From positions 8,868,001 through 8,932,000 of the forward strand of contig NC_087245.1 in the NCBI RefSeq assembly GCF_037042905.1: 64,000 bases of DNA, read 5' to 3'. Origin of the DNA: Lytechinus pictus. Lineage: Eukaryota. The translations under genes and the position numbers were made by a program. Below the pieces are notes generated by a model. The model made no database searches. It was not told the origin of the DNA and saw only the letters and a program-made list of their open reading frames with translations. Below are positions 14,568-41,996 of the stretch, piece after piece (the first letter of the stretch is position 1; each line of letters opens with the position of its first letter).

Positions 14568-15387
14568 GGGTGGTATTCTGAGATCCATTTTATCTCAGAT
14601 AAAATAAAATATTTTATCTCCGTTAAAATCAGTGAGATAAAATACCCTTAAAATCTCTCCGAATTGGTATTCTGAGAACAATTTTATCTTCATTTTATCT
14701 CTGTAAGACACCTATTTTTTAATAAATATCCAATTAGAAACGCGCTTATCAAGCTCATATCATTCAACCAATGGAAATCCATTCTGCTAGGAGGTGTGGC
14801 GAGGGAGTGAGATTGCGTCAATTTATTGACTTCAAATATGCTTGCACTATACGCTTGCGCGTCTTTACAGAGATTTCTTTTTTTTTTAATGGCAATACTC
14901 TCATCTTTTTTTCGAAGTCTATATCGCATCTTTTCAAGCATCATTTCAAAGACAATATTAGTCAAGAAAAGTCTTATGAAATACTTCCTGATTGCACAGG
15001 AATAACTTTAAGGTGTTGTTGTCAATGAATATATAATTTTTCTTAATTTTCATGCCAACATTTGGAGTTAATTCACCTAGAAATATTGATGAAATCAACG
15101 TCGCTGAGATAAAATAGCCCCTACCCTCTTTTAAGTTTTTTTTTTTTTTTTTCAAAGTAACTTGGGCGCAAGCACATCACCCGCGTTGCAATGGCCAGAT
15201 ATGCGATGGGTATGTCTACGCAGCCACTGCTCGGTTGCGTATCATCATTGATACGCAAGATAAAATTTATTCGCAAGATAAAATTTTAATTTTATCTGAG
15301 AGATAAAATGTCATCTCAGAATATCAATTTCATTTTAAGAGATAAAATGAAATATTTTAAAGATAAAATGACCTCAGAATACCGCCC
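14568..15387. mobile_element. Harbinger-type MITE
   Basis: TIR GGGTGGTATTCTGAG / CTCAGAATACCGCCC, 3-bp TSD CTT, repeated TTTTATCT/AGATAAAA subterminal motifs. Confidence 0.9.
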
Positions 15388-16614
15388 CTTTTCTTTTTCC
15401 TTCTCTTTCAGTGCCTTCCTCTTCTGGTCGACTATGGTGGCAACCCTTCCGTGGAACCCCTTGGTCAGCTTTCTTCCCGCTGTTCTTGCTGTGTTCATGA
15501 TTTCCACCATGTCTTCTTCCTTCGTCCCATCTACCAATTCCCCCGTTCTGTTCAGAGCAAACATGATTGTTGCCTCATTTGCTAACAGGGAAGAATTAGG
15601 GTGCGTCCTCATGAGGTAATCCAAGTATGCAAACAAACGCTCAGTAAATTTATTGTGTTTGTCAACACTGCCTGTTTGAGATCTAGCAGAGATCTTGCTG
15701 AGTTCCCCTAGATGTGCTGAGTGATTTTCCATCACTTTACTGAGAGATGGGAGCATATGATACAGGATAGTTGTATTGAGACCATCATGCTCTGTTGGTT
15801 CTTTCAACTTCTCCAAGATTGGGTCATCTCTGATGGGTTCATGCCAAGGGAGAGTAAGGTTCCCTTCCAAGAAGCTGTAGGGTCTTTGCCTGCATCACTC
15901 AGTAGCTTAATGATGTCACTGTAGATGGGAGGAAGATCTAAAATGTGCACTGCCTTGTTTTCCAGGAGTTGCCAAAGAGGTGTTGTGATGTACTTACTAA
16001 CTAGACCCAGAGCTCTTCAGCCAGCTAGGTAAAATGGCTCCTGGAGGTCAGCTTCAACTGCACGTTGTAGCTTGTTGGTTGCCCCGGTCTCTAGAAATGA
16101 CTTTATGTGCTCAGACAAGAAATATGTATGTGCAGCATTGAAAAAGAGGATATTGAAACAATTCCCTCTGAAAGAAACTAAGGGTAATGATCTCATGTTG
16201 TACTTCTGAAGCATATCCTTGCTGTACACTTTGAACTGCCTATAGTTGCCGGCCTTTTCATCGCCCCCGCGAGCAAAAGCCTTGGATGCTGACTGTACCA
16301 ACCTTAGCACACCATTCTCATGCTTGAATGCAAGTCTCTTGATGGCTGCCCCTGAACCCTTACCCTCAAACTTTTCCTCCTCGACCTTTGCTAGAGTTTT
16401 TTGCTAGAGACTTCTGCATACTGGACAAGACTATGCAGTCCACAGAAGGAGGATTTCATATCATCCTCTATGGGCCTCCTTTCGTTCTCACTTAGGGCTT
16501 CACACATCTGGTAATTTCTGTTGCCGCACGGTCACTCATCGTGTTCCTTATGTGCCCTAGGATTTTTTTGCCAGCATCACTTGCATTCACAGCCACATCA
16601 TCAAGGTCGGCTTA

Positions 16615-18350
16615 TTATAATCACACGGGTCGCGGGCGGGTTCGCAATCACTCGGGTCGCGTTCGAAATCACTCGGGTTTTGGATTTTTGGCGATTTTTT
16701 TTCTAATGGTGTCTTCAATGGGACAAACACGCTGGGAAAATAAAATGAAATTCAAATTTGAGTTTCATTTTAAGCCGGCAAGTGCCTTAAATAAAATGTA
16801 CTTGACTACTGTTTTAACATAACAAACAAGCAAATTAGCTATGTGGCTCAACTAACTTAGAATAGATCCGAACTTCTACTGTGTCCTATACGAGGACTCC
16901 GAGTCGGAACTTGCCATATCTGCCACATCGATATTACATCGTCATTCCCATATGCGGACATGCCTGCATGCAATGGACCCAAGGCGGGACCCGGCCGCAG
17001 TCGGACATGACGTGCATCAGTAGCATGGAGCAAGCTAACGTGAGTCAAGCCGAGGTAGATCCAACGTACGTTATACAGTGCCAGTCAGTCCGCAGCCCGT
17101 CCGAAAGTATTTTATTCAGCGGTATGCATAGCCATCCGTGGTTTAATGCATATACGTAATGAGCTGTGAAGACGATCTTTCCGATCGGCGTTTAAAAATG
17201 TTGCTCTTAGAATTGTCAATTTCTCATAAAATTTGTCTTATTTTATAGATAAAAGGGCCATATCGTGTTTTAAGTAACTGGAGACCTAAACAATTCCCCA
17301 CCTAAAATTCTTTCTCTCTGTCTCTTCTACCCTTCGAAATTGAAACAGTCCTTCAGAAACAGTTTAGACGCAGGACAAATAATGCTCTGACAACCAAACT
17401 AACTTCTCATCAGCATCAGTAAAAATGTGAATGGGCTTTTAAAACTGATCTAAAATTGAACTTAAATCAATTTTGAAATTGATTTCAAAATCGATTTTAA
17501 AATCGTAATTATACCTGTCCTAATAAAGATTATTATTCCGTTTTGTCCTAAAATGCACCAAAAACAGGGAAAAAAAACTTTAAAGGGGAAAAAACAGTGA
17601 CTAATTACTTCGGCTGTCGCGCAACTTCTGTTTACCTGTTTTATTGGAACTTAATACATAAACATATGGCCATTGAGTCCCTGTACAGATCGAGCTAGAA
17701 CTTCGGTCTCTGTATTTGGTGAGTGGAGCCAACGGAGTTCAGCGGAACAACGAACATAACAGAGACCGAAGCTTTTGGTCTAATTACGTGTATATATATG
17801 CATTAAACCACGGATGGCTGGCTATGCATACCGCTGAATAAAATACTTTCGGACGAGCTGCGTACTGACTGGCACTGTAACGTGGGATCTAACTCGGCTC
17901 GACTCACGTTAGCTTGCTCCATGCTACCGATGCACGTCGTGTCTGACCGCGGCCGGGTCCCGCCTTGGGGCCATTTTATGCAGGCATGTCCGCAAACTCC
18001 GCATATGGGAATGACAATGTAATATCGATGTGGCAGATATGGCAAGTTCCGACTCGGAGTCCTCGTATAAGACACAGTAGAAGTCTGGATGTATTCTAAG
18101 ATAGTTGAGCCACATGGCTGATTTGCTTGTTTGTTATGTTAAAACAGTAGTCGAGTACATTTTATTTAAGGCACTTGCCGACTTAAAACGAAACTCGAAT
18201 TTGAATTTCATTTTATTTTCCCAGTCTTGAAGACACTGTTAGAAGGAAAATTGCATCGAAATAAAAAAAATCGCCAAAAATCCAAAACCTGAGTGATTTC
18301 GAACGTGACCCGAGTGATTTTGAACGCGCCCGCGACCCGAGTGATTATAA
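16615..18350. mobile_element. Non-autonomous foldback-type DNA transposon with ~550-bp TIRs
   Basis: 16615-17160 is the reverse complement of about 17782-18350 (ORFs 16881+ and 18075- are near-identical). Termini TTATAATCAC...GTGATTATAA flanked by TA. Confidence 0.92.
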
Positions 18351-19704
18351 TAGACTTGTTGGAAGGTAGACAGGGTGTCCGAAGCTGACTTCGTAGCAAT
18401 GTCTCTCAACTCGAGAACGTAATAGCGTTTGTCATCATCGCTTAGATGGTATCCCATGACTTTGTTTCCATATTTGGATGTCTCATCCGAGTACAAAGTT
18501 GTATTTTCCTTTGACGACACTTCTTGGGCAAGCTGTTCCTGTGCAATGTAGAGCCGCTGTATGTTCATGTTTTCGACTGTTGATTTACTAGGAAGTCTTG
18601 TACATGTTCTCCCTATAAGGTTTTTGACCACAGATTTAATACAAGGAGAAACTTTGGCTACAGCCACATGATTATCTAGTAAATCATACACACATCTGGT
18701 CAAATTTGTGCCATAGCAATTTTTCTCATTGTCATATGTTTCAATGTCTTGATTTTCTAGTCTCTTTATTCTGTCACGTAACTGTTTGTTTTCATCTGTG
18801 AGAAAGGTTATGTCATTTCCCATTTTCTTTACCTTTTCTTCCAATGCTGTGATTTTCATCTCACACTCTTCATGATCTATTTTTTCTTCCAATGTTTTGC
18901 TTTTCTTGCGTTTGTAATCCTCCCTCAGAAGTGCCCATTTTAAGGACTGTTTATTTTGAGTAGCCTTGTCTTTCACATGTTCAAGCTCTTTGTTGGTACA
19001 CTCAAGTTCATGTTTTTGTTCATTACATTGTTTTGTCAACCCCTCTACTGTTCTTTCAAAATTACATACTTCATGCACCTGACAAATCCTAGAACTTTGA
19101 GGCTTCCTTCTCTCAAGCTTGACAGTAGGATATTTATATATGAATTCTTCATATGCTGCATAGACAGACTTCTTTCCATCTTTACCTAATTTATTCCTCT
19201 ACTCTTTTAAACGGGATAAAATAATTTCTACAGTCTTTGGTAATATTTCTAGGTCAGGACATTATGAGATCAAATGCTGTGCAGTTGCTGCTGACGAACT
19301 AACTTTCAACATTACCAAAACTGCTTCATTTGTAAGAGCGTTGTTGCCTTCTTTTTTTCAGGGGGGGGGGGTGATATTAAAGGAAAGAAAAAAAGAAGAG
19401 ACAGATTAGTACTGCAGTTGGAGACTGTCAGGCGATACATGCATCAAATAATATCTGCTTTCCCTGAAAGAAAAGAAAGTTAATGAATGGAGACATATGG
19501 TAGGGCAGGACTTGATTTTGATGGCTATCTTCCATGATATGCTTAAGGAAATAAGAAAGATTACATGGAGCAGGAAAATTAAAAGGATAAAAGAATCTTG
19601 ACTATTGGAAATCAAGTAACAAAGATTGTTGTTTACAAGCTCAAGCCCAGTCAAGGAAAAAGGGTGGTCTACAAATTTTAGCTGAACAAGCTTTGTTTTT
19701 ATGT

Positions 19705-20565
19705 ACCAAATCTCGCGTCATATCACACGCCAAATTGTGCGCCATATAAGCAAGATCGCGCACTAAATCGCGTGCCATATCGTACTCCAGATCGCGCGAT
19801 TTAATTGCGTGTTATATCACACAGCAAATCGCGCGCCATATCATACACCAAATTGCGCATTAAATCGTGCGCCATATCACAAGCCAAATAGCGTGCCATA
19901 ATTACACGCCAAATTGCGCACTAATACCGTGTTTACACTTAATCGGCATTTGGTTCAGAACCAAATGCTGATGCAGAATCGGCATTTGGATTGCGTTTAC
20001 ACGTTGTTACAGCTCGCGGTTCTGAACCGCGAGCCGATGCAAAAACCTGAAATGATACGCATACCAACAATATACGTCATAATAAAGACAATGCTGGATC
20101 AGTGCGCTTACAATTACGTCACAATGGTAAAGTAATTGAAATGCACACAAATTGCCGGTGTAGAATCGGCTTTCTGTTTACACGTAGTAAAAAAAGCTGA
20201 TTCTGCATCGGCTCGCGGTTCAGAACCTACTACTTTGATGGTGCAAATTGCCGGTTCTGAACCGCGAGCCGATTCAAGTTGCTCGCGTTTACACGCTATG
20301 AAAAAGCCGATTCAAATGCCGATTAAGTGTAAACACGGTATAAATCACACACAGATCACGCGCCAAATCTCTCACCAAATTTCATGCCATATCCGAAATC
20401 GCGCGGCATATCACATGCCAAATCACGTGCTAAAGTGCACGCCAAATCATGCGCAACATATCTGCATGCCAAATCGCGCACCAAATTGTATGCCATAACA
20501 CGCGCCAAATTGCATGCCATATCACACGCCAAATCATGCACAACATATCTGTGCAACATATCTGC
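19705..20565. repeat. Degenerate minisatellite (~12/24-bp units, CCAAATCGCGCG/CCATATCACACG)
   Basis: Recurring ccaaat/ccatat units on both sides of the 19925-20340 MITE. Confidence 0.85.
19925..20340. mobile_element. Harbinger-type MITE
   Basis: TIR TACCGTGTTTACACTTAATCGGCATTTG / CAAATGCCGATTAAGTGTAAACACGGTA, TSD TAA. Confidence 0.9.
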
Positions 20566-21575
20566 GTCAACACTTATCTCACACATTACCTTATTACCGG
20601 ATGTACTGGACAAATGCAGAAAGCTGCAGCAAAGTTTCCAGGTCTAGCTTTTGTCCAAGCTCAATCTTTTTCCACAAGTATAATATATGTGTGTCAGTCT
20701 CGTGTACTAGTCGATTTGACATTTTCCGAACCTAGAAATGTTCTTTCCGATTAAGTTTTTTTCTTGATTCGTGTTCCTATGGGGTCCTAGAACAAATTCA
20801 GCTTGGTTGCCCAAAGTTGCCGTTTGGGCAATTTTGCTAATTTGCATAAATCCAAAATGGCCGCCACATGCCCTCTTAAAAAACTAACTTTTGAACCCCT
20901 TGCCCTATAATGATGAGGAAGAACTCCTTTTATGGGTTTAAATGTGTGTAGAATCCATTTCTATTAATATTTTTGCAATATAAGGTCATCTTCAGGTCAA
21001 ATCCAATATGGCCACCAGATGTCATTTTGAAAAATTGAATTTGAACCCCTTGTCCCAGAATGATGAGCAATACCTTTGTTTAGGGGTTTTGGTGTGTGTA
21101 TCTAATCTATTTCTGCTTATCTATTTTGCAATATAAGGTCATCTTCAGGTCAAATCCAAGATGGCCACCAGATGACGCCATCTTGAATATTAACTTTTGA
21201 ATCCTTTGCCCCAGAATCATGAATGATAACTTTATTCGTGAGTCATTTGGTATGTTGATTCAATTTTTGATGTAATTTTGCAATAAAGGAAAATCTTCAG
21301 ATCAAATCCAAGATGGCCGCCAAATGCCATCTTGAAAAGCTTCTAACCGAGGCTTATAGTGTAAGAGCTTATGTAAGGGGATTTCAGTAAAAATACTCAT
21401 TTCTTTTTATTAATTCTCAATTTTAGTTCAAGGGGAAGCCAGATCTGAGATGTTGTCAGACGTTCAAAATTAACTGCTCATCTTAGAATGAATCCTCGTT
21501 AGGTTATGATCAATTTCGCGTGTACTTTTATTTCTTTTAATGTCCATCCATACTTTTGTACTGAAGAGGCTTTAA

Positions 21576-22164
21576 AGGAGAATGAAACTCTTGGAGCAAG
21601 TTAGCTTTTGTGAAAGCAGAAAAATCAAAGAACAAGATCAACAAAATTTTGAGTAAAATAGGACTAGCAATAGAAGAGTTATGAGCATTTGAATGTCGAG
21701 ATCACTAATGCTATGGAGATCCTCCCATTGGCAATGCGACCAAGATCTATGATGTCACAGATGAACAACTCTCCCCTTTTGGACACTGAAAATATACCCC
21801 AAAACATCTCTTTTTGCTCATTCTAATCATATGACAAACGATTCATCAATGATATAATGTTGTGAAACCTCTGTACTTGTCCTCTCATAAAGAGAACACC
21901 TCACATTGTGATAGACTCTGTAAAAGTGAGAATATAAGTGAAATAAGTACTAAAGTAATGAGGGAGTTGTACGTGTGTGACATCACAGATCTTGGTCGCA
22001 TTGCCAATTGGAGGATCTACCGTATATGGCATTAGTGATCTCAATATTCAAATGCTCATAACTTTCTTATTATTCATTCAATCTTCCTCAAACTTTCAAC
22101 AATATGTTTCTTTGATTTTTCTCTTTGATATGGATTCAGCTGGTTTCAAGGGTTTCATTCTCCT
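21576..22164. mobile_element. Kolobok-type MITE inside the left Academ TIR
   Basis: TIR AGGAGAATGAAAC / GTTTCATTCTCCT, TTAA TSD on both sides, long internal inverted repeats. Confidence 0.88.
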
Positions 22165-22329
22165 TTAAAGTCTTTTTTTAATTTAAAAGTATTTTCTCCA
22201 TATTTTTCCTAAATCAAAGTGTCCAATGATAGGTAGGCATCAGTTCCTCTAGGGTCGCTGGGGTTTACATTTTCGATAGTGGCTGTAGAGCTCCGCTCTA
22301 TAGAGTGGCAGTCTCTAAAGCAAATTTGT

Positions 22330-23420
22330 ACAGATGAAGGAGAATGGCGCTGAGACAGGTTCAAATAGTGATGCTGCCCTAGCCTTCCTCCTTGGTCTTT
22401 GGCCTGCCAATGTAGCATTATGATTATTTTCTGACGTCTTGACCCCTGTACTTAGTAGCTCTCCATAGATGACGACTATCATCTACATCTTCAAAAGTGT
22501 TAGTGTTTATGCCGGCCAAGTTTTATGTCACGTTTGCAGGTGTGTTTATAACGGAGGTGTGATCTATCTGGGGACCAATCACATAGCTCACCTTACATTG
22601 GTGAATCCCTTCTAGAATTTGCCAAAGTTTCATGCGGCGAACATGCCCCCAACCACTTGAGGCACCTTTCACTAAGGAGCGAGAATAAGCTGGTGATGCC
22701 AACATGCACGTACGCTGAAGGGCCTTATATGTTTCACTCTGTCCTGCCATTTCATGTGCAGGATATGTCCGAGGAAGCTGACATGGAAGGTGTTTAGCTG
22801 CTTTTCTTGATCGGCGTACGTTTTCGAAGACTTATTTCCATTCAGGAGCTTGGCCATGGCTGTGACAGATATTCCCATCATGGTGCTTGCCTCCTTGTCC
22901 AGTGAAAGAGAACTAGAGACAGATAGTCAATCCAAGGTAGGTGAGGAGTCCACCACAACCAGACAAGTGCGTGCTGTTGATAGAGATATCTGGAGGACAG
23001 TCAGTGTCTTGAGTCTATCAGGATTTCTTTCTTACAGGCTGATGGGTGATCTAAACTCCGTACATGCACAGGACAGGTGGCTGTATTACTAGGTCTTGTA
23101 GGCCTACTCCCGCTTCTATATGAAAGGTTGAAGAGTTTCCCATCTGCTCTGGTACGGATATACATGTAGATGTCTTCTGTGCATCCGTGAAATGCATACT
23201 GAGGAAGCATGAAGAAGATCCCAAATGAGTGTCAGGGCCAGGCGCAGCATAATTGCTTCACGCCACTGCTCACAGGAACTGAGGGAAGCTACCAGATGTT
23301 TCAGCATTGTAGCAAACTGTGCTCATGGAATGATGTGACCATGGATCAGATTTGGGGGCCTATCTTCTACAGGAGGCTAAAAAGTGCACTCGTGCTGACC
23401 AAGTCAAAGGCTTTTGTCAG
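22330..23420 (-). mobile_element. Decayed RTE-clade LINE reverse transcriptase fragment
   Basis: Minus-strand remnants LTKAFDLVS, GVKQ, RTRADGKLFNL and QEKQLNTFHVSFLGHILHMKWQDRV. Confidence 0.8.
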
Positions 23421-24494
23421 GACGAAAAGTCCAATGATTATTATAAAGGATGGTAATAAGTTAACCAATTTTCTGAAAATACTGAAAAATCACTTTTTGA
23501 TTAAAAAATAATACTTTGAAGTCCTTTCAATAGAAAAATATGGCTGGACATGAAAAAATGATGAGAATTCCCGAAATGGGTCATAGCCCAAACCTTGAAT
23601 GGTTTCATTCTAAGGTGAGCGATTAATGCCGAAATATATCAACCATCTGACCATCTGAGACCTGACTTGACCACTAAAAATGGAGAAATTAAAAGAAATG
23701 AATCATTCTTACTGAAATACCCTTACATGAGCTCCCACACATAATAGTAACCCTCTTTAGGACAGCGTGTACTTTTTGGGGAGAGTACTTCTTCAAGGTT
23801 CAAAGTTCGATAGTCTCGGGAAGTAGTTTTTCTTATATAGCGTTTAGCGGCCATCTTTTTTTAAAATCTGAATGATCCTATATTTATTACCAGAAATGGA
23901 ATCAACATATCAAATAACTCACGAAAAGAGGTATTATTCATGATTCGTGGACAAAGGGTTCAGAAGTAATTTTTTTCAAAATGGCGTCATCTGGCGGCCA
24001 TCTTGGATTTGACCTGAAGATGACATTATATTGCAAAATAGATAGCAGAAAGAGATTCTACACACCCCAAAACCCCTAAACAGAGCTATTACTCGTCATT
24101 CTGGGGCAAGGGGATCAAAAGTCAATTTTTCAAGATGGCATCTGGTGGCCATCTTGGATTTGACCTGAAGATGACCTTATATTGCAAAAATGATAAAAGA
24201 AATCGATACTACACCCCCCCTAATCCTTTAAAAAGAGTCTTTAATCATCACTTTGGGGCAAGGGGTTCAAAAGTTTAGTCTTTAAGATGGCATCTGGCGG
24301 CCATTATGGATTTATGCAAATTAGCAAATTGCCCAAACGGCAACTTTTGGCAACCAAGCTGAATTTGTTCTAGGACCCCATAAGAACACGATCCAAGAAA
24401 AAAACTTCATCGGAAAGAACATTTCTAGGTTGGTGTATTGAGCCTATGGGACTGTCAAATCGACTATACATGGTGCATTTGCAATCATTTTTAT

Positions 24495-24846: not shown

Positions 24847-25025
24847 GATCTAACGTCAGGCCTGACAATGCTAGATATTTTACCGATTGTTTTCTCTCAT
24901 AATTAATTTAAAGTTTAACTTAGATCTAATTCATTTAGATCTATTTTAGAAAGTTGAGAAAAAAAATCTCCACGACTCCAATTCAAACAATTTTATAAAC
25001 TCCCTTTTAAATTTCAGTACATCTA

Positions 25026-25265
25026 TAATGTAGATTTGCTCCCTGATATGAGTAAATATACATGGATAAATGTGATACTATCAAGGAAAGGTGAAGAGGT
25101 GAAAACCTACCTGTTTTCAGGAGCGCTGACACGGGCTTCCTACTCAGGAAGGTCTCCAGATAAATCACACAGTCTCAGCTGAGGGGGGGGGGGAAGTGGT
25201 TGAGCGCCCCCTTGTGTCGGAAGCTGGGGGGGGGGAGTAGAGAAGTAGGTTCCATTCCTACAACA
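25026..25265 (-). repeat. 3' LTR (240 bp), preceded on the element strand by PPT GAACGGGGGGAA (25266-25277)
   Basis: Direct repeat of 34363-34593; element-strand ends TGTTGTAGG...CTACATTA. Confidence 0.95.
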
Positions 25266-26401
25266 TTCCCCCCGTTCTGAAAAACCCGGCGGCACACTCC
25301 AGGGATTGGTCGACGAGCAGTGCTTCCAAGAGAACCAGCCAAGCCAACAGAGTAGAAGAGTCCCAAAACCTAACCTACCCTAACAACCCCCTAAACAAAC
25401 CACCCAAAGAAAAAGTTTTTTTTCCCCCTTTTTTTTTGGTTCTACTTCACCAATTCCCCTTGCAATTTCAATCGCACTGCATAGTGAGCGCCCCAGAACA
25501 TATTCTACACTCCCTGTCTAGAAATTACTACTGAACCCCAATCAACAATACGTAAAAGGAAATTCCTAAGACCTCCCGGGAAACGATTCCCCTCCTACCC
25601 CGATCCCGCAAGTCAAAAATCTTCTCTCCCCCGGTGCCCAAGGTTAAAAAAGCTTTTTTTTTCTTTCTAAAAAAAACAAACATATTATGTCTCTAAACTA
25701 TCTTGGATAACCAAGGAAACGCATATACACGTCAACGCTGTGCCAACAAAATAAAATATACTCAAACGCATGTACAGCAGAAGGAGAAATGAAAAAAGAA
25801 AGAAAATGATCCTTGTTTGTGATAAAGGATTACACAAATAGACCAGGAAATCCAGCAGTCACCAGTTTAAACGCTACCATTTCTTCCTTAAAATAACTTT
25901 TTTTTCCAAAACTATGTCAACTGTAGTGTTTTCGCACTACAAGCAAACAAAACTGAATACGCTAGAAATACATAAGAATGCTTGATTATATATATATTCT
26001 TTCTTGATCTCTTCCTTTAGAAAAATGCAGGAATGCCTTGGTATACCTTAATATACAGATATTGGCCGCAGAGGGCCCCCCTTTTCCCCAGTCACTTCTA
26101 CTCCCATGACAGTGGACTGCACGCTTACCCTCCCCGGTCTGCGGTACCTTCTTACCGATGGGGCGGTACATTGCCCTTTTGTTTTGAAGGGACCCCTGGA
26201 TCACCAGCGACCAATCTAGGTAACTCGGGTACAGGGAGAGGGCGTCAGCTCTGTCATTTAACGGAGTGAGTGAATATTGAAAAGAGGGCCCCTCTGGGTA
26301 CCCCCCCTAAAAAAACGAGCTTTATATACAATACGGCCTATATGGCCAAAAAAGACCCTCGCCCGGTGAGCAACAGTCTTGCCCACCTGCCCCTACCAGG
26401 C

Positions 26402-27375
26402 CTACTGCCCAAAGAGAACCAGGCCATTCGCCTTGGTCTCCTCTAGGAGGTCCTGGAGCTGCACACCTCTAGCAGAGCCGCCAACCAGTACGTTTTAGCC
26501 GTATTTAGTACGTTTTTGCAACCAAAATACGGCAGTACGTTTTTTCTTTGAAAAATACGTTTTTTGTTTGTTTTTTGTTTAAAACTAAATCGTAATTTAT
26601 TGAGAAAAATAATCTCTATATGTCTCTATTTCATAAAACGTGCACAAATATGGTTATTAGATCAATGTAATTTCAGGTAACATGTTTTTTTTTCAATCAT
26701 TTTGTTCAAACCAGGGTGAAGATATACACATGTTTTGATGTTTTTTTTTTCATCTGCAAGAGCAGTGCGCATTTTTGCTTGCATGCAGCTTGAGCGCCGC
26801 GATGAGCGAGTGCGCCAAGCATTTTATTATGAGGAAAAATACAGTTTTTTTAATCACAGAATACAGTTTTTCATTCCCAGAGGTTGGTCTAGCCCCCGCC
26901 ACTAGGCGACCCACGTCTCCTACCTAGGCTGGAGTATGAAACTTCCGTTTGCCAATAACCAGATGAGGGGCATCAGTTTTCACCAGCAATCGGTTGCTGG
27001 GCACCCTGCGCAACGCGGTTAACTGCTCCCTCTGGAAGGAACTCACCGGCGCCGAGAAGCCAAAGTAGACATTGGGGAAGGCTTTTCCCCAAAGAGCCAC
27101 TTCCTCCGGGCCAAGCGTGCATGACTGGATATGTATCCGCTGATGCCAGTTGACCCGTTTGGCTGTCTCGGTCCGGACAATCCTGGATGGAACATCTGAG
27201 GATTTACCCTTTCCCCGGATGTGTAGGATCAAAACTCTACCGGTCGCTATAACCTTATCCAGGATCGCCCGGAACATGGTGAGCTGCGCCGACCAAGTCT
27301 CTTGAGGCTTGGTATAATCCAACCCAATCTCACCAAGAGCACTGGCGTTAGGTTGGCATATGAGCTTAGCCTGAT
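26402..27375 (-). pseudogene. TatD-family nuclease domain inside the Gypsy element (N-terminus missing, split by a MITE)
   Basis: ALGEIGLDY, LILHIRG, IHIQSC, NVYFGFS, RRVPSNRLLVKTDAPHL, TPA*VGDVGRLVAGAR, then after the 26473-26887 insert GVQLQDLLEETKANGLVLFGQ*. Confidence 0.9.
26473..26887. mobile_element. hAT-like MITE with a damaged right end, inserted in the TatD domain
   Basis: AT-rich insert starting CAGAGCCGCCAACC and ending GGTTGG, flanked by TCTAG on both sides; removal restores the TatD frame. Confidence 0.75.
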
Positions 27376-27612
27376 TATCTAAGGCTGGCTCATCAAAGGA
27401 GAGTGCATACTTGCTCTCTCCTTTGGGGAGGCCGGGGCTGGGGCTCGAGGCCGGGGCTCATCCCCTTCTTCGTCTCCCTGGACCTGTGTCTGCTTGACAA
27501 TTGGTCCTTCAACTACAGGCCCGCATCCTTCGTCAGAGCGGCAGATAACGGCGTGCGTCACACCAAGAACCGGCTTCTCCCCTCGGCCCGCATCTGCCTG
27601 AAGAGACATCAC

Positions 27613-30060
27613 CTAGCCAGTGAGTGGGACCACATCGTCAACCACATCACTGAATGGGGCCCAATCTCGGTGGGCCAGGGCACAATATCCGCAACCCCCA
27701 CAGGGCAGTTGACACAGCTCAAAACCCATGCGATACCCCTCACAATGAAGGTCCGAGTTTGTGATCCTGGACAGGGCATCCGCGTTGGCGTGTTTCGAGC
27801 CAGCGCGGTACTCGAGACGCATGTTGTACTGGATCAGTTCCTCCATCCAGCGAGCAAGCTGCCCCCGAGGATATCTGAAATTAAGTAGCCATGTCAGACT
27901 GCTGTGGTCTGTCCGAACCACGAAAGGTCGGCCCAACAGGTAATGGCGATATTGACGAGTGAACCTGACGACCGCCAGCAGTTCTCGTCGAGTCACGCAA
28001 TAGCGCCTCTGTTCAGGAGTCAGTGCAAAACTCCCATACGCTATAACGCGCTTCCCCCCTTGTACCTGCAACAGTTCAGCTCCTATTGCCTCATTTGACG
28101 CGTCCTTGTCGAGGATGAACTCATCCCGAGTGTTGGGCATAGCTAGAACTGGAGCTCCCGCCAGTGCCTGCTTGATCGCCTCAAGGCTTGCTGCTGCTCG
28201 GAACCCCACTGGAAAGGTTGCTTCCCAGTGATCCTATATAGAGGCACTGCCACTGCAGCATAATCCTTGATGAACGAACGATGATAGTTCGTCAGGACCA
28301 AGAACTGTTCAACATAGCGAGTCTTTAGAGGGGTTGGCCACTCCCTCACTGCCTTTATATGCTCGTCCCGAAGGCGGACTCTATTTGCGCTCACATTGCG
28401 TCCCAGGAACTATACTTGCTCCTGAAAGAGCAAGCACTTCTTTGGTTTCAGCTTCAACCCAAAATGGGCAAAACGCCCAAGGACATCCTCAAGGTTCGTC
28501 AGGTGGACTTGTGCTGTCTTACCCAGAATGACTATGTCATCCAAGAAAGCCAGCGCGGTCTTCCAATTAAGTCCCCGAAGAACAAGGTCCATGACCCTTG
28601 AGAAGGTAGCCGGAGCATTACACAGCCCGAACCCCATTCTCACAAACTCATATAGTCCGTATTTAGTGGCAAACGCTGTCTTCTTCTGATCTTCCGGGGC
28701 GATCTTAACTTGGTAGTATGCCGAATTGGCATCAAGTTTAGAAAACCACTGGTTATCCACAAGGGTATCCAAACATTCCTCAATGTTTGGTAGAGAGTAT
28801 ACATCCTTCCGGGTGACTGCGTTGAGGGCCCGGTAGTCTATGCACCACCATCGCGCTTCCAGACAAGAACGGGGGCAGATGCCCATTCTGATACTGAGGG
28901 TTGGATGATCCCAACCGATAGTGTGCTCAGTCTTGGAGAAATTCCCCAAGTCAAACTCATCTTTGGCAAATACATCAGCAAACTGAGTTAGGAGACACTT
29001 AAGATCGGCCTTCACTGATTCTGTAAGCAATCCCGAGGACCTTTCAAATAAGTCATGGAGGTGTGGAGGCATCTCATCGTTCCCCCCCTTTCTGACCTGG
29101 GAGATGGACCCATCCCCCTCATTCGAACTTCCTGAAACCGTGCTAGTGGGGGGAGTTTTCTCCCCCTCACCCGGCCCATCCTCGCAGATCTCAGCTTCTC
29201 CCAGCCTCACCAAGAACGTCCATACCCTTGAGTTTCCGGTGCCGGTCCGTAGGGTTGACAACGTACAGGTCAACCTCACGTCCAGACCTATGGATGGAGC
29301 AGGGAATTAGCACTTGAAGCTGAGGCTGCGGCTCGAACATGAAATTTCCAATCTTCTGATCAATTACGCCAGTGATTCGCTTAATTGTGTTGGGTGGGAC
29401 CACCACCCTCCTTAGAGCGTACACCCTGGCAATTTTCCGGTCAGTACCGTCCCCGTATCGGAGGCAAATGCTCTCCCCCATGAGGGACAATCGAGGCTGC
29501 TGAAGATGTATGACGGCTTTATGCTTCCTAAGGAAATCTAACCCAAGCAGCATGGAATCCGAGATGGGAGCCACATACACCTCCTCCTGGAATAATTGGT
29601 CCCCCAGCTTGATAGTCAGCGGTACAACCACTGCCCCTCTCATCTTCATCCCGCGACCTGCTGCATGTAGGAAAACGTCCCTCAACCATTCTGGCTTTGG
29701 GACTAGCTGCCCCAATATTCGATCAGAAATGATGGTGACTTGAACGGTGGTATCCACCACAGCACTGAGTGGAAGGCCGCCAACGATAGCCTCAACATTT
29801 AGGATGGACCCAGACCTAAGTCTACACACTACCACTTCTTCTATCCCACCTTCGGATGTACTTGGGCCACAATCTGGCCCAGCACTCATTCTTCCTGGAG
29901 GGTTACCTCCCTGTCCGATGGTCGGAGGCTCCTTAGCAGTGAGAGAGTGTACATATGTGGCCAGACCCCTGACCACTGGGTCTCCTGTCTGGTATAGGGT
30001 TTGCTCCTCGCCCGGCTTCATGTTCACCGAGAAGGAAGATTCCCTGGCGTCCCCGGACAA
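27613..30060 (-). pseudogene. pol: Gypsy pol: aspartic protease, RT and RNase H; frameshifted, no integrase found
   Basis: PR: AVVDTTVQVTII and LLGLDFL. RT: CIDYRALN, KLDANSAYYQ, FGLCNAPATF, FLDDIVI. RH: DKDASNEAIGAEL, ELLAVV, TDHSSL, NADALSR. Confidence 0.95.
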
Positions 30061-30080: not shown

Positions 30081-31390
30081 TTGTTACTCCAAGGCCACTT
30101 CCAGCTCGGGCCGAGGGTTGGCCTTGTCCTCCAGCCCGCTGTAGTTTTCCTCCTCTTCACATTCCACAAACAAAACCCGGGGATTAGGAGCTCGAGTCCC
30201 CTTGCTATTAGGGCACTCCCGTCTGAAATGTCCAAGCTCCCCACAACCCTAACATCGGTTTGGCCCAGGAGACTTCGAACGCTCTCATGCAGGCTCGGGT
30301 TTGGCCTGGAGAAGCTCGAGGACTTGTCGCAGGTCTCTTTCCAAACCCGCCATCCACGTCTCCATCTTGGACTCCAGTCGGTTGCACATGTCCATTGTGA
30401 GGCGCTCAAGCGCCACACCTGCTGTGTCTTCCACAGGGCGGCTTGTAGACCGAGGAGGGGCCTCAGCCTTCCGGACGGCACACAAATCCTCATCCAGGGT
30501 TACAGTTTTAACAGGGAGAGGACGTCCATACATCGCACTTTGAACGTGTTGGTGCCAGTGGATATAATCCACCGCCTGTTCCCTGGTTGCAGGGCTACGA
30601 GCGAGAGCATGACACCCTGCCTCCCTGTTGGAACAGCCCTGGCACAACCGAAGCACCACCTGCTGTTGGAGGTGTCCCGGCTGGGCACCTGGAAAAGCCC
30701 GGAGAGCCAGACGAAAAAGTCTATCGGCCCAGTCGGACAAGTGCTCATCCGTAGCCTGCTTCGCTGACATAAACTCAATCTGGGCGGCCTCTGGCAGCCT
30801 CCCCCCATCAAACCGCCTGTCTAGATGGCGGGCCATCAACACAAAACTAATGCCCGGCTCCTGCTCGAGCACCATGCTGAAATAATCAGCCCCCTTCCCC
30901 TCGAGGCACCAACCCAGCTGGTTGATTCACTGCACCTCACCCCAGGCGCACTGGTCTGCGAAAGCCTCAAATCTGGAGAAGGTCCTCCAGCTCCCACGTC
31001 CACCAAATGCTACCGACTTGGGGGGCTGCTGGTAAGTTGACCTCCCCGCATTTGCCCCAAATCGTCCCCCTCCTGGCGCAGCGGTTTGCAATGCCTGTCG
31101 GCCCGGGGTTTGGGCTGAATCAGCCCTACCCCCAAAATTAGGGGTAGTGGGTACCTCCCCCTCTCTAGCCGGACGAGCAGGGCCCCTGGCCTGGGGGATA
31201 AAATCGAACAATTGAATCAGCCCCCCAGCATCCCCTGGGTAAGATGCCTCGAAAAAGCAGGAGTGATGACCCTATTCTCGGCCCTTATGCTCCATAGTTG
31301 CTCGGCTTGGACTGCCGATAGGCCAGGCACAGCTAAGAGCTCAGCTTGGGAGCAGAGATTAATGGGGATTCTTCCTCCCCCCACTGCCAT
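30081..31390 (-). pseudogene. gag: Gypsy gag with an N-terminal helix-hairpin-helix domain and a CCHC knuckle; frameshifted
   Basis: N-terminus IPINLCSQAELLAVPGLSAVQAEQLWSIR; capsid-like WRTFSRFEAFA...LDRRF...AQIEFMSAKQATDEHLSDWADRL; knuckle C*GCGELGHFRREC near 30220-30260. Confidence 0.85.
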
Positions 31391-31559: not shown

Positions 31560-32350
31560 TAAGGTTAATTCTCAGATTAAAGTTAATCCTCAGATTAATG
31601 TTAATCCGAGGATCAAAGTTAATCCCCAGCTAACCTCGGGTTATAGTCAATACTCAGTGCAAAGCCAATCTTCAGTTTAAAGTTGATCCCCAGGTTAAAG
31701 TTAATCTCCGTGACCTTTTGGGCCGAACACGCGTGGAATGAGTTCAGGGACACGTGACCTTGATAATCCAAAACAACCCACAAACCGCCTCATTTGAACT
31801 GTGTGCTTGGCTGCTAGTGCGAACGCATCCCTGCCTTAGAACTAGATATGCATTAACCGCCTAAGTTCGAAGTGAGAACACACCCAAAAACAACATTTCA
31901 GTGCACATGAGATTGCACCCCCTACTAGCACTAAGCCAGAATAGATTTGTGCCCGTTTGAATGAGAACGCACCTTCCTTCAACACCGAATGAGAATAAAA
32001 CGCCTTAGCTCAAGTGGGAACACACCCCCTACTAGCACTAGACAAGGATAAGTTAGTACCAGGGCTGAGTGAGAATGCACCCTCCCTTAACACAGAGCGA
32101 GCATAAAACGCCTTAGCTTGAGTGGGAACACACCCCGTCTTTAACCAGGCAATGATTTCCTGCCTAGGGATTGAGTGGGAACGCACCCGAGGTACGAAGT
32201 CAATGAGGATAAAACATCGCAGGTTCGAGTGGGAACACACCCCACCTTATCACTAGCTAAAAACTTTCGTCAGAACTAGTGTAAAAACGCACCCTTCTTT
32301 AGAACTAGTCGAGGATTAAACGGTTTTAAGTTCACGTGGAACACACCCGA
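31560..32350. repeat. Tandem repeats in the Gypsy 5' leader
   Basis: ~18-bp units (AAAGTTAATCCTCAGATT) at 31560-31710, then repeated GAGTGGGAACACACCC/ACTAG units at about 31870-32350. Confidence 0.8.
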
Positions 32351-32678: not shown

Positions 32679-33236
32679 CCCGGGGGGGGGGGCCACTTAC
32701 ATTGACGAGTGGATACCATGCGCGACCAAAAAAACACGTAAAAAGGATGTCTTTTTTCACGATAGGGCACGTTACGTACGTAACGTGATAAGGGTGTCAA
32801 AAACACAAAAATAATGAAAAAAGGGTATCTATTTCGCTAGGAAAATTACGTGTTTAGGGTCGAATTTGCGGGGATGATAAAACAAAATTAAAATGTTTTA
32901 TAAAGGATGTCCTTTTTGCCCCCAACACTTCGTGTTTAGAGTCCGATTTGCGCGAGGTGTAGAAGTTGGGGTCGTACTAAACCAAATAAGGTAAAGCCGA
33001 CAACCGAAGGACCCGTAACAATAAAAACATTCCTGTACTTGTTTAGGGGTTCATTTCAGGGAATATTTGCCAAGAGGATCGTTTTGTTTCCAATACTTGT
33101 TAAGGGTAGGGTTTCACACGCCAATACTTGTTAAGGGGTGCATTTTCAGAATATGGAAATTACGTGTTTAGGGTGCTTTTCGAGACCCCATGGTCGCGCA
33201 TGGTATCCACTTGTGAATGGAAGTGGCCCCCCCGGG
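32679..33236. mobile_element. CCCGGG-ended MITE in the Gypsy leader
   Basis: TIR CCCGGG(G)nCCACTT...GTGGATACCATGCGCGACCA and its complement; flanking direct repeat ATCTCTCC. Confidence 0.88.
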
Positions 33237-34346: not shown

Positions 34347-34361
34347 CTGCCGACTACGCCA
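34347..34361 (-). promoter_or_regulatory. Primer-binding site complementary to the tRNA-Ser 3' end
   Basis: Element strand TGGCGTAGTCGGCAG, 1 nt after the 5' LTR; complementary to ...CTGCCGACTACG-CCA of metazoan tRNA-Ser. Confidence 0.88.
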
Positions 34362-34362
34362 A

Positions 34363-34593
34363 TAATGTAGATTTGCTCCCTGATATGAGTAAATATACAT
34401 GGATAAATGTGATACTATCAAAGAAAGGTGAAAGTGAAAACTTACCTGTTTTCAGGAGCGCTGACACAGGCTTCCTATTCAGGTACGTCTCCAGATAAAT
34501 CACACATTCTCAGCTGAGGGCGGGAAGTGGTTGAGCGCCTCCTTGTGTTGGAAGCTGGGGGGAAGTAGAGAAGTAGGTTCCATTCCTACAACA
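34363..34593 (-). repeat. 5' LTR (231 bp)
   Basis: Direct repeat of 25026-25265 with scattered substitutions and G-run length differences. Confidence 0.95.
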
Positions 34594-34617
34594 TCTAGTT
34601 TTATACTTGGGACTACA

Positions 34618-34806: not shown

Positions 34807-36164
34807 GTGTAGTCTGCTTGGGCAGGTTGGGGGCGCTATTCACATACACTGCACATTACCATCAATCTCGGACTTGACATAGCCTTGAAAAAAACCTTCG
34901 CGCCGTTTATCCGCTACTCCATCGGCTACAAGTCCGGTACCAATCGAAAGCTGAGAATACAGGGAGTTCAAAAATGCTAGTGCGAAACAAGTCTCTAGGG
35001 GTAGATTTCGAGCTATACGCAACATAATTGCCGATAAACTGTCACCATATTTCAACTCACACGCACATATATATCAGAAATTCAAATTTGAACGGAAAAA
35101 TCGAATTTTTGGAAAATAATATCGGAAATTTTCTTACCTTCGCGAGAATCCATCTTGATAAAAAATCCCGTATGGAAATCTCGAGGAACATTAGATTTGA
35201 TGAGACTGGTCCAATGCGGTAGTAGTTATAGGGGCATCGGCGTACATCGTGACTCACCAAAACAACACGAAAGAGACGCAAGTTTACACAAGTGTTTTTT
35301 TTGTAAAAAATCATATTTACTATCAATAACTGGGATATACTCATTTGATTTGCTAGTTCATTACAATTAACTTGCACGCCGAATAAAATGTACACAATTT
35401 TCCTGCGCGCGTGCTGCATCTCCCTATGAACGCACTATCCCAAGATTATCGCGCAATTGGGCGTCCATTTCCTCTTTTACTTTCGCCTGCCGTCGAGTAT
35501 AGTCGCAAGCTAAGTACACTCCCAAAATTGCAATTTTGTTTCACACTTTGGATACTATAATTGTGCATTTATTCCCTTATTTCAATCTTATTTTTTTATT
35601 TAAGATTGTTTCAAGCATATATATCCCATCGCGCGGAGCCCTCCGTGATATTTATTTTCACGTATTTTGTTCTTCTTCTTGTGAGTCAAAACATTAGATT
35701 TTCTCGCAGGACGGGTTGCCTTCGCTTCCCCTCCCGTAGCTTCGCGCTCCTGCGTGTTGCGGGCGTTGAGCCGTCGCTCTCCTTTTTCTTTATTAATTCT
35801 TTTTAAATCATTGACTTCTCGCTTCTATGCTTACGTCTTGAATTTCTTTGAATTTATTTCTCTTTCCACAGATAGGTTCTGTTGGACTGTCAGGAGCGTT
35901 GTGTTTATCTTAAACTCGTTTCAACTTCTGTTGTTCTTGTTTCGAGTTAGTTGATTGTTCTTTTGTTCCAATCAATCCTTGTATCCTTTTGTTCTTGTGA
36001 ATTAATTAATTGAATTAATAAATTATTTAATTAATTACTTCTAATTAAAAAAAAAAAATTCTTTGACCTTGTCTTGAGAATTTTTTTTTCCTTCGCAAGA
36101 AAAGTTTATTTCTTTTTAGGAAGCTGTTTCTTGTTAGCGTCCCTTCTCGCTAATTTCCGTTCTG

Positions 36165-36320
36165 GGTCCCGTAACACAAAGGTTAGCGATTGATCGCTAA
36201 TTTCAAAGGACAATTCTGATTGGTTCATAGTCAGTCTACTTAGCAAAATGCGCATGCAACGGTGATCTTGATTAGTCATTTCATTTAGAGATTAATCGCT
36301 AACCTTTGTGTTACGGCGCC
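36165..36320. mobile_element. Harbinger-type MITE in the DIRS leader
   Basis: TIR GGTCCCGTAACACAAAGGTTAGCGATT / AATCGCTAACCTTTGTGTTACGGCGCC, TSD CTG. Confidence 0.88.
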
Positions 36321-36889
36321 CTGGTCTTCCCTTTTCAGGAAAGCAAGCCATCATTTTCTTCTTTCCTTTTCAGATCAGCTGCTGGTCTCCGGAAACTTAT
36401 TTTTTTTAGACTTCTTGTCAAAAAAAAAAAAAAAAATTCTCAGCTGATCCTGTTCTTCGCCTCAGACTTTCTGAACAGGCTTTCACCCCCCCCCCCAAAA
36501 AAAAAAACTGTGTTTTTTCTTAGGTGCTTCTTCCCTTTTTTCCTAGGTGCTTCTTCCCTTTTTCCCTAGGTGCTTCTTCCCTTTTTTCCTTTCAGGAATC
36601 TAGCAGGAGCGGTTTTCTTGTGTTTTCTTAACGGACAAAAAAAAAAAGGGGAGAGTTTTTTCATAATAATTTCTAAATTGTTACTGTTCCCTTTTACTGT
36701 GATAGTACTTCTTTGTACTATCCTTTTGAGATATTAAATTTATTTAAATTTATTTATTCTCGCAGTTCATTTTGTTTGAAGTCTCTTGACTTCTGGGGTT
36801 GGGGTTTTTTCACCCCCCTAACCCCCCCCCCCCCGTTTTCTCTCTGTTTTATTCTTTCTACTCGCTACTAGATTTACGTCTACGTGAGC

Positions 36890-39284
36890 ATGAGCCTCTC
36901 GGATTCCTCCCTGGAAGAGCTCGAAATGGCCGCTGAAGAGGTGTCCAACACTGGGGTTCTGTTTCCCACCAGTGGTAATGTAGAAAGCGACAGAGATCCT
37001 TTGTGGGTTCTAAGAAGGGTGGAACCATGGATCCGAGTCCACGTGCCCATGGGGGTGGAACCGTGGAAGCGCGTCCAGGTGCCCAACTAAACCACTTGAC
37101 TGCGTAGCATGTAATATTACGTGCTGGGCGAGTGTACGATCTGTGCTGGGCACGTAATATTACGTGCTTGACCTATCTTCTGTTTGAGGCGTCAGCACCA
37201 TGCTGTTAATACCCTTACGATGACAACAGCGCATGTATATCAAATTTCAGACTATAGTCACCAGATGGCGCTATTCCACAAAAGTTATTGAAACTTTTGC
37301 AGTGATTTATAAATGTTTGTATTCACTTTTCCATAGTGATAGTGTACGGCGCTCAGTTCAAAATGGCGACTCGCAGTGGAAAAGTGAATCAGAAGGATTT
37401 TGACGAAACTTTAGACGATAGGAGTAATAAATATAGTGAAAGATCTGTGTCAGAAGGGGAAGATGATTTTTTGTATGGATATTGGAAAAAGTGATGAGGA
37501 AAGTGATGTGATTATTTACAATTTTTCCCCCAAGTTGCTGTCGGTAGTAGTCCCAAATAGATCTAACTTGTTAGTCCCATTCAGTAGCACCAGGGGGGTC
37601 AGTGCGCATTACAGCCTATAGCAGTCAAGTGGTTAAGAAGGGTGGAACAGTGGAACTGCGACCACGTGCCCGCAAAGTGATAGCCCAGGCTTCAGTCTCG
37701 GAACCTGAACCATATTTGGGGAGCGTCGTGCTAGCTCTGAAAACGCCGACTCCAGGGCTGCCAGACCCACCGGCTATCGGGTCACCCGAAGACCGGGGGG
37801 AGAGCATGGGCCTCTCCTTCCGGCACAGACTAGGCTCGATGCCGTGTCAGACTCCTCAAGGGAGCGTCGGCAAAGGGCTACCAGCCCCTAGTCGCAAGAG
37901 ACAGTGTAGCCCGACCCCGTCAGATTCGGCGGACCTCTCTTCTCGGTCGGTGAGCACTCCCCGGGGGAGAGCTAAGGTGAAGAGATCAAGGCCCGCCCAG
38001 TCTCTTGTCCCTTCTTCTGCTCTGCCGTCGGAGCCGCTTAAGAAGAAGAAAAAAAAAAAGAAATCTGCGGCCGTAAGCCCCGTTCCACCGGGCGGTCCGC
38101 CTTCGAGCACTGCTGGTTATTACTCCCGGGCTGATCTGCTTCAGCCGACGGTACTACCAACCAATCGGATCAAGCAGACATCGGCCATCTGACACCTTGA
38201 GGCGCCTCTAGCGATTCTTACGAATAGCCGGCTCTCGAACCCACTCAGGCTACGCCCATGAGCATCCAGGCTCGGCCGACTTTGGGGGTGCGTCCCCGCG
38301 AGCCCGGCCATGGCCCGCACCGCCACTCAAGCCTTTCACGGGCGCCTGCTACCCTCGGGGCTCCGCCCGTTGAGGAGACGTGGGTTGGTTCCGGAGCCGG
38401 TAGAGGGAGATATGGACTCTCTTTTCTTCTCGTAGCCACGTAAAACCCGTCAAGGTATTCCAGTCACCAATGATTCCAAGGTTGCATACGAGAGGGCGGC
38501 CGCACAGGCTAGCGTGCCTGCCGCCCAGGGAAGAAAACCGGTGTCCTTTGGAAAGGGTTTTGCCTTCTCCAAGGACGACACCGAGGCGTTCTTCACCCCC
38601 AAGACATTCTCCCCCCAGCTTAACCGCATCGGGGCACGTTTGGGGACCCGTTTCTCTTCCAGTCATTTTGCTACTGTTGAGAAAGCGGACGTTAGATATG
38701 AGGCCTTGACTCGTTCAGCCCTCAGACTTACAGCCTTCCTCGGGGCCTTGCTTGGTTTACGAGCACAGTCCTCCGAACTGGAAGTGACAGCCAACGACAG
38801 TGTCCTTCTTGATGAGGCACTTTTGTCCTTGGTAGGCGAGCTCTGGATGCAGCTAGCTACTGCAGCCACTACTGCATCCAACTCCCGCAGAACTCGCGTC
38901 CTTAGTAGACTGGGCATCGTGACCAAGGGCATCGTGACCAAGGACTTGCTAGAGTTCCTCCCGGGCGTCCCCCAATCGAACAAACATTTGTTCGGGGGCG
39001 AGGTGGCCTCTCTTCTGAAAGAAGAGATTGACGGACGCAAACAGGCTTCAGAGCTTCTTAAAGAACTCAAAGCCTCGCGCCCGATGGCTCCACCCACGAA
39101 GAAGCTGGCCCCCAAGGCCCGTCCTTCCTTTCGTCCCGTGGTGGCCCCATCTCAACCCCGTGCACCCGCTCCGCCAAGTCGCAGAGCTCGCACTAGACCT
39201 CCAGTGAGTGCCTCACGTGGTGGTCGGGGTAAGGGCAGCCGGCCAGCCTACAGGGCTCCGGTCAGGCCCAAACAGCCTCTTTGA
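36890..39284 (+). pseudogene. DIRS ORF1 (gag-like), disrupted
   Basis: Ser/Pro/Lys-rich N-terminal part, then helical ...RRTRVLSRL...HLFGGEV... (the LFG motif typical of DIRS gag) and a basic tail; interrupted by a piggyBac-like insert and frameshifts. Confidence 0.75.
37092..37632 (+). mobile_element. piggyBac-like non-autonomous element
   Basis: TIR CCACTTGACTGC / GCAGTCAAGTGG; right TSD TTAA, left TAAA; internal acidic ORF start MATRSGKVNQKDFDETLDD; removal restores the gag frame. Confidence 0.8.
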
Positions 39285-39299
39285 CGGGTTTTCCCGAGC

Positions 39300-41870: not shown

Positions 41871-41896
41871 TCCCTTCACGTTGAATACATGTTGGT

Positions 41897-41996
41897 CTAG
41901 CAAATCAAATGAGTATATCCCAATTATTGATAGTAAATTACGAAAATAGTTACCATGATTTTCTTATTTATGAAATAACTGGATATACTCATTTGA
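41897..41996. repeat. DIRS internal complementary region (ICR)
   Basis: First half is complementary to the left terminus (35316-35356); second half is complementary to the right terminal extension (about 42177-42231). Confidence 0.92.

Follow-up and report, generated by a model that had tools for sequence, protein, structure and literature searches.

Gypsy retrotransposons with a TatD-family nuclease gene between pol and the 3' LTR, and a decayed copy in the sea urchin Lytechinus pictus

Our study shows that a lineage of Gypsy LTR retrotransposons carries a TatD-family nuclease within a separate gene, ORF3, placed between pol and the 3' LTR. The copy in the window, i.e. the whole stretch of 64,000 nucleotides of the Lytechinus pictus genome that we analysed, is a decayed relic of such an element, from which the integrase and most of ORF3 were deleted. 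An earlier reading made from the letters alone (the sequence-only reading) had proposed a Gypsy lineage with a nuclease as cargo, and this proposal holds: diverged sister elements carry TatD at the same place, their active-site motifs are intact, the domain is under purifying selection and its divergence tracks that of pol. Of this part of our account we are nearly certain.

The window element occupies the minus strand from 34593 to 25026 (9,568 bp) and has the hallmarks of Ty3/Gypsy, namely two LTRs (231 bp at the 5' end and 240 bp at the 3' end, identical at 219 of 231 aligned bases, 94.8%), a target-site duplication, a primer-binding site and a polypurine tract. Protease, reverse transcriptase and RNase H follow each other in this order; the integrase is deleted here, but comes after RNase H in the related loci L087, L104, L083 and L084. 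The window RNase H is 61-68% identical to those of L083, L087 and L104, and Pfam matches to HhH and zf-CCHC in the gag of L087 and L104 support the domains of the window gag. Supplement files 2 and 4 of PMC13524379 list the 12-mer of the primer-binding site under tRNA-Ser(AGA). The element contains the following features (window coordinates, strand):

25022..25025, no strand: target-site duplication TCTA, left copy, matching the 4-mer at 34594-34597
25026..25265, minus: 3' LTR, 240 bp
25266..25275, minus: polypurine tract adjoining the 3' LTR; a similar G-rich tract and TG start occur in 8 related loci
25276..26401, minus: 3' untranslated region, between the ORF3 stop and the purine tract
26402..26472, minus: last helix and stop (26402-26404) of the ORF3 TatD domain, family profile positions 248-270
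26473..26892, no strand: AT-rich MITE-like insertion, 415 bp plus duplicated TCTAG (420 bp), terminal inverted repeats incomplete
26893..27412, minus: main surviving part of the ORF3 TatD, with an in-frame stop at 26924-26926
27413..27621, minus: deletion junction, where remnants of the pol linker abut TatD; the integrase, the PHD finger, the spacer containing the splice acceptor and the first two ORF3 domains are gone
27622..28191, minus: RNase H (RT_RNaseH, E 4e-29) and the Cys-rich stretch after it
28182..29204, minus: reverse transcriptase (RVT_1, E 1e-25), with one stop and an internal gap
29203..29841, minus: aspartic protease region
30201..31390, minus: gag, frameshifted and with 3 stops; helix-hairpin-helix at the N-terminus, zinc knuckle at the C-terminus
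31916..32243, no strand: degenerate tandem repeats of about 108 bp in the 3-kb 5' leader
32679..33236, no strand: second MITE, in the leader, with inverted ends and the 8-bp duplication ATCTCTCC
34350..34361, minus: primer-binding site, tRNA-Ser type, 12 bases
34363..34593, minus: 5' LTR, 231 bp, with a consensus splice donor CAG/GTAAGT, GT at 34445
34594..34597, no strand: target-site duplication TCTA, right copy

The window retains the C-terminal two-thirds of the TatD domain (26402-27412, minus strand). The motifs on which its recognition had been based (GEIGLDY, HIR, YFGFS and KTDAP) are all present, and the frame 26924-27457 (minus strand) matches Pfam TatD_DNase at positions 75-208 of 253 with 61.4 bits (E 1.1e-16), the cut-off being 27 bits. 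Of the span originally proposed, 26402..27375, the end at the stop codon 26402-26404 stands, but homology starts slightly beyond the other limit, at 27412, and carries on past the in-frame stop at 26924-26926. The domain lies inside the LTR pair on the same strand as protease, reverse transcriptase and RNase H, as had been noticed, and its C-terminal helix does continue beyond the MITE. When the family profile was run on the three minus-strand frames, with stops read as X, it matched from position 76 to about 249 ahead of the insertion, whose body (26473-26887) is flanked by two copies of TCTAG, and, with the frame unchanged, from 248 to 270 beyond it; taken alone, this latter part scores only 0.8 bits (E 0.04) and is convincing because it continues the family profile exactly. 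The copy had been called dead, given its stop, altered ligands and missing N-terminus, which understated the damage. Two metal-site positions, that of the second His ligand and that of the Glu in ETD, now have other residues, and the DxHxH and HP motifs were lost with a deletion that lies between the end of pol homology at 27622 and the start of TatD homology at 27412. A search of the window element in six frames detected neither integrase nor PHD finger nor the N-terminal domains of ORF3, and we thus estimate from the intact L087 and L104 that about 4 kb were deleted. A 108-aa gene model of L. pictus is 97% identical to the window TatD fragment and has the same defects; the closest whole proteins are those of Lytechinus, Diadema and Strongylocentrotus.

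A scan of metagenome contigs with a motif of the family gave 26 loci, of which 21 encode the family and 5 were unrelated and dropped; these loci are a partial sample, since the scan motif is present in 48 of 143 long relatives, and elements devoid of ORF3 could not show up, because loci were located by their TatD motif. Ten of the 21 contigs start inside ORF3. Among the 11 that reach farther upstream, nine have integrase/PHD directly before ORF3, L090 has the end of gag at this place, and L105 has 351 nt of spacer only. Two loci, L087 and L104, are intact, with three open frames for gag (514 and 508 codons, respectively), pol (1537 and 1457) and ORF3 (907 and 1081). Their gag contains a helix-hairpin-helix, a PNMA-like region and a zinc knuckle, and their pol contains protease, reverse transcriptase, RNase H, integrase and PHD finger. 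Downstream of ORF3 come a purine tract, the LTR and the primer site, after which both contigs wrap round into the leader, the form that a collapsed multi-copy repeat should take. The question of whether TatD is a separate ORF or fused to pol is answered by these two elements in favor of a separate, unfused ORF3; no pol-TatD fusion was found among three longer protein hits, a weak search, and none of the collected family proteins matches pol. Farther downstream, a purine tract and TG start are found in 8 of the 9 loci that have more than 700 nt there; L096 fails the purine-tract rule, yet a similar tract is visible. In addition, a gene model of Strongylocentrotus (P0321) joins a gag 40% identical to that of the window to a whole ORF3.

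L090 is a pol-less derivative, in which gag zinc knuckles are followed by part of ORF3 with TatD, a purine tract, an LTR and a primer site; both L090 and the window copy keep the TatD end. The gag of the lineage opens with a helix-hairpin-helix DNA-binding motif (L104 228-1751, L087 9553-11094, window 31259-31375) and its pol ends in a PHD finger, which makes two more additions that read chromatin or DNA. An old sea-urchin gene model (P0327/P0184 cluster) fuses ORF3 with xylulose kinase, suggesting that an element was inserted in or beside the xylulose kinase gene.

The nuclease is maintained by selection and inherited with the element. Whole-protein Nei-Gojobori estimates were mostly saturated and four pairs of close loci were used instead; in these pairs, which are few and come from assembled, partly decayed contigs, dN/dS of TatD was 0.12, 0.14, 0.14 and 0.27 over 70-269 codons (Fisher p of 0.009, 0.001, 8e-9 and 0.002), i.e. 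selection was purifying in four out of four. The dN/dS comparison recommended by the sequence-only reading thus came out in its favor. The part of ORF3 upstream of TatD gave values of 0.43, 0.46, 0.19 and 0.42, one of them not significant (p 0.074). TatD distances correlate with those of RT-RH (r 0.79, p 0.025, 5 elements) and of the C-terminal end of integrase (r 0.45, p 0.005, 9 elements), as expected from inheritance with the element.

When the window fragment was searched against representatives at 50% identity, it matched 869 proteins at E up to 0.001. With a L. variegatus protein as query there were 62 hits, and the relatives named among them come from sea urchins, Ptychodera, Pinctada, Mytilus, Argopecten, Dreissena, Saccostrea, Tegillarca and Haliotis, with three entries from bacterial bins. 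Near-identical ORF3 proteins recur within Pinctada, on 6 contig records, and within Diadema, on 2, and these long contigs differ in length. Whole ORF3 proteins have 600-1100 aa. Their N-terminal domain is predicted to comprise five helices (pLDDT 90); a linker with a basic patch at its end leads to a C2H2 finger, to which a predicted helical domain (pLDDT 93) is attached, and after another linker comes the TatD barrel, which is complete. The linkers are disordered. The basic patch precedes the finger in 17 of 18 cases, versus 9 of 76 other linker windows used as controls, and the ligands of the C2H2-type finger are kept in 86-94 of 97. On these grounds the patch probably serves nuclear import, and the finger the binding of nucleic acids or proteins. 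Fold searches gave nothing clear for the middle domain (best Z 4.3, rmsd 5.1, 80 aligned; best Foldseek E 1.6) or for the N-terminal one (best Z 7.3, rmsd 3.1, 81 aligned, generic helical; best Foldseek E 3.1), which does not imply new folds, and searches of the atlas returned leads under 0.8 only.

The active site of the element TatD is conserved: D, H, H, E and D are present in 29 of 29 domains, as is the second His, and the His of HP, the His of HxR and the Glu and Asp of ETD in 28 of 29. Its N-terminal HxH places it in group II (scheme of PMC10085689, partial text). The intact ORF3s of L087 and L104 match Pfam TatD_DNase with 128-136 bits and nothing else in Pfam, neither an envelope nor a DEDD exonuclease. 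Highest hydropathy over 19 residues ranges from 0.97 to 1.77 in 20 ORF3 proteins and exceeds 1.6 in three. The low hydropathy and the TatD-only Pfam result do not support a membrane fusion glycoprotein, as in env-carrying Gypsy elements. The viral contigs searched had no relative of TatD, ORF3 or the reverse transcriptase, and the plasmids searched had ordinary bacterial TatD only; a scan of genome contigs was likewise dominated by bacterial TatD of the ordinary kind. A search of sequencing runs gave a single match with 38% of the words and no RNA run among the matches listed, which has no bearing on expression.

Where does the nuclease come from? In a quick tree of 76 rows, with 30 of the 80 bacterial TatD contig loci as references, TATDN2 and bacterial TatD fell outside the single branch that united the element domains (support 99). 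A more careful tree of 38 rows was rooted on four group I TatDs; its references included 12 bacterial-contig loci and 3 more of group I, and it was built without cnidarian, sponge, plant and fungal TATDN2 and without eukaryotic TATDN1/3. This rooted tree placed the element TatD as sister to TATDN2 (100/99), with the element branch itself at 100/100. Its stem is long (1.08) and stands beside, not inside, TATDN2. Two alternative placements were rejected: grouping with YcfH-like bacteria, as expected of a bacterial origin (p-AU 0.021), and nesting in echinoderm TATDN2, as expected of a recent capture (p-AU 0.010). A Cys located 55 residues ahead of the catalytic Glu, in a Cys-x-Pro motif, is found in 23 of 29 element domains, 16 of 16 TATDN2 and 0 of 30 bacterial TatD, and has been called specific to TATDN2 among human enzymes (PMC10711561, partial text). 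Global similarity does not favor TATDN2: the TATDN2 profile scores higher for 13 and the bacterial one for 16 of the 29 element domains, mean identities are 28.5% to TATDN2 versus 26.2% to bacterial TatD, and the best match of the family profile among solved structures is YcfH (E 2e-35). It is likely, judging from the rooted tree, that the ORF3 nuclease derives from the animal TATDN2 line. Since it is sister to TATDN2 of both protostomes and deuterostomes, the capture would seem old; displacement of the long branch may also contribute to this position.

The position of ORF3 recalls the env gene of errantiviruses and retroviruses, e.g. that of Drosophila gypsy, a third ORF between pol and the 3' LTR that is expressed with a splice donor near the 5' end and an acceptor after pol. 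ORF3 resembles errantivirus env in this position and in splice signals, as far as the signals themselves go, and differs from it in that it encodes no envelope protein. Between pol and ORF3 lie a stop and 60-450 nt. With the choice of ATG and the donor rule both set after inspection of the sequences, an acceptor-type site (pyrimidine tract and YAG) lies at most 7 nt from the chosen ATG of ORF3 in 7 of 10 loci (shuffle chance 0.02-0.09 each), and a donor-like site lies at LTR position 168-238, in the 3' half, in 8 of 8 loci (0.09-0.18 each by shuffling), against none on the opposite strand. An acceptor-type site is present somewhere in the spacer of 9 of the 10 loci; applied to pol, the same rule finds 23 sites in 20.6 kb. 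N-terminal homology confirms seven of the ten chosen ATGs, five of which are among the seven with an adjacent acceptor, and L104 has two ATGs between the acceptor and the chosen start. The 5' LTR of the window likewise has the donor, the acceptor being lost. These signals make it quite likely that the donor in the 5' LTR would be joined to the acceptor just behind the pol stop, giving a subgenomic mRNA of the env type.

What may such a protein do for the element? We favor, as moderately probable when taken as a whole, a reading in which a Gypsy lineage would have taken a nuclease of the TATDN2 line long ago as a separate and conserved third gene, translated from a spliced message. ORF3 would be a nuclear RNase, with R-loop-like RNA:DNA structures as its substrate. 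Such structures would arise at the transcribed or newly integrated copies of the element itself, and the element would benefit in that its transcription stays steady and the germ cells where it multiplies survive. The substrate and the benefit, which are argued by analogy with the host enzyme, are put forward tentatively; an R-loop RNase is our choice because ORF3 is a separate, probably nuclear protein of the TATDN2 line. TATDN2 cuts RNA in R-loops and hairpin RNA, has little DNase and very weak AP-endonuclease activity, is minimally active on plain RNA:DNA duplexes and requires its own N-terminal region for R-loop binding (PMC10711561, partial text); vertebrate germ cells need it against R-loops (PMC12709183, partial text). 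ORF3 and TATDN2 share the HxH motif of group II, the catalytic Glu/Glu/Asp, a Cys-x-Pro in the strand that precedes HP and a long N-terminal extension. They differ in sequence (about 28% identity), in the two folded domains of the ORF3 extension, which are absent from TATDN2 (the middle domain matches none of the TATDN2 proteins collected), and in that the gene of the element is multi-copy, intronless and inside LTRs. Because TATDN2 needs its N-terminal region for R-loops and the N-terminal domains of ORF3 differ, the substrate may have shifted. A bolder version of the favored reading appears doubtful to us: an old Gypsy lineage of marine invertebrates would have captured TATDN2 before protostomes and deuterostomes split, added two new folded domains and expressed the product from an env-type spliced message, so that an RNase for genome maintenance or against silencing, clearing RNA:DNA structures at its own copies, would have replaced the envelope.

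The substrate might instead be DNA, with ORF3 trimming 3' ends or clearing abasic sites on the cDNA or integration intermediate, much as the sequence-only reading had suggested. E. coli TatD, YjjV and YcfH, and human TATDN1/3, are 3' exonucleases and AP-endonucleases (PMC10085689, partial text), YcfH is the structure closest to the family profile and the basic patch is compatible with a nuclear role. We nevertheless find this unlikely, given the little DNase and very weak AP activity that TATDN2, the nearest host line, showed. Somewhat less probable still is a role against silencing, in which ORF3 would destroy small RNAs or nascent transcripts recognised by piRNAs, or its non-catalytic domains would bind a silencing factor. 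A separate and probably nuclear protein with two extra predicted folded domains and disordered linkers would suit this role, TATDN2 also cuts hairpin RNA and a silencing-related function has been entertained for the DEDDy ORF3 of rotifer elements (PMC5408684, partial text), but the catalytic domain is under strong purifying selection with no sign of an arms race there. We regard it as improbable that ORF3 is packaged into the particle as a second RNase H and clears away the RNA of primer and template while the cDNA is made: Ty3/Gypsy elements have acquired additional RNase H domains on several occasions (PMC4408406, partial text) and the rooted tree suggests an RNA-nuclease ancestry for ORF3, but ORF3 is joined to neither Gag nor Pol in L087 and L104, the RNase H of the element itself scores normally and TATDN2 does little on the plain duplex. 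Finally, a host gene fragment landed by chance in one dead element, as might be thought of a window copy without integrase, whose pol linker runs into mid-TatD, and of relatives entered as host genes by annotation pipelines, has a negligible probability: TatD is not a secondary insertion confined to this copy, having the same position in diverged sister elements, the intact L087 and L104 refute the idea, and in both trees the element domains make up a single branch that excludes host TATDN2, nesting in echinoderm TATDN2 being rejected.

The favored reading, with an enzyme in the place of the envelope, has a precedent in the Juno and Vesta elements of bdelloid rotifers, which we compare from the partial text of Rodriguez et al. 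2017 (PMC5408684). Like the elements described here, they have a Gypsy-like gag-pol and an enzymatic, non-envelope ORF3 in the env position, with catalytic residues kept and no membrane segment. ORF3s of this type are typically expressed from spliced messages, and the function of the DEDDy ORF3 is unproven in that source. The folds differ, an RNase H-like DEDDy 3'-5' exonuclease in Juno/Vesta versus a TIM-barrel TatD here; our ORF3 is also multi-domain, with 600-1100 aa, and has relatives in sea urchins, a hemichordate, bivalves and abalone. Selection is purifying in our elements, whereas the rotifer study found no significant departure from neutrality within a genome. TatD is a real addition to the precedent of enzymatic ORF3s set by the rotifer exonuclease. 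A survey of metazoan env genes (PMC13524379) detected no env-carrying Gypsy among echinoderms; its main text does not contain the word nuclease, nor its 7 supplements TatD. TatD is also absent from the available part of PMC6338049, and neither "tatd" nor "nuclease" nor "additional ORF" occurs in that of a mollusc survey (PMC6238403); a paper on the giant squid just labels a TATDN2 gene in a figure. We found no paper on TatD in a retrotransposon in the literature outside Repbase, GyDB and most subscription journals, and think that there is one chance in three of a note in Repbase or GyDB.

These results add a new class of enzyme to the short list of accessory genes of LTR retrotransposons, and link this cargo with a host nuclease on which the germ cells of vertebrates depend to cope with R-loops. 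They make the role of a nuclease in the env position directly testable, this being a soluble enzyme with known motifs, and they bring two confidently predicted domains of ORF3 without clear structural match. They also bear on annotation: multi-copy genes named "tatD" or "TATDN2" in sea urchin, mussel and pearl oyster assemblies are likely transposon cargo, and so are entries called "TatD family hydrolase" in certain bacterial bins.

The window contains other repeats. A decayed DIRS-like element (35315-42222, plus strand), with inverted terminal repeats and internal complementary pieces, has frames for a gag-like protein (38436-39284), reverse transcriptase (39285-39974) and RNase H (40142-40786), and a frame of 526 codons (40369-41949) that by eye resembles a tyrosine recombinase and has no Pfam hit. 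A transposase-like frame on the minus strand (1763-2806), also without Pfam hit, has motifs that we take to be of Sola type. Pieces of another transposase-like frame (18239-19198 and 15316-15894, minus strand) are split by an insertion with long inverted repeats (16613-18352). Two direct repeats of 300 bp (7916-8215 and 14511-14810), 98% identical and 6.6 kb apart, enclose a fragment (13755-14231) that is presumably Harbinger-nuclease-like. Arrays of a 12-bp minisatellite and several MITE-like or fold-back repeats lie at 19706-20551, 20729-24431, 47093-48047 and 48734-49514.
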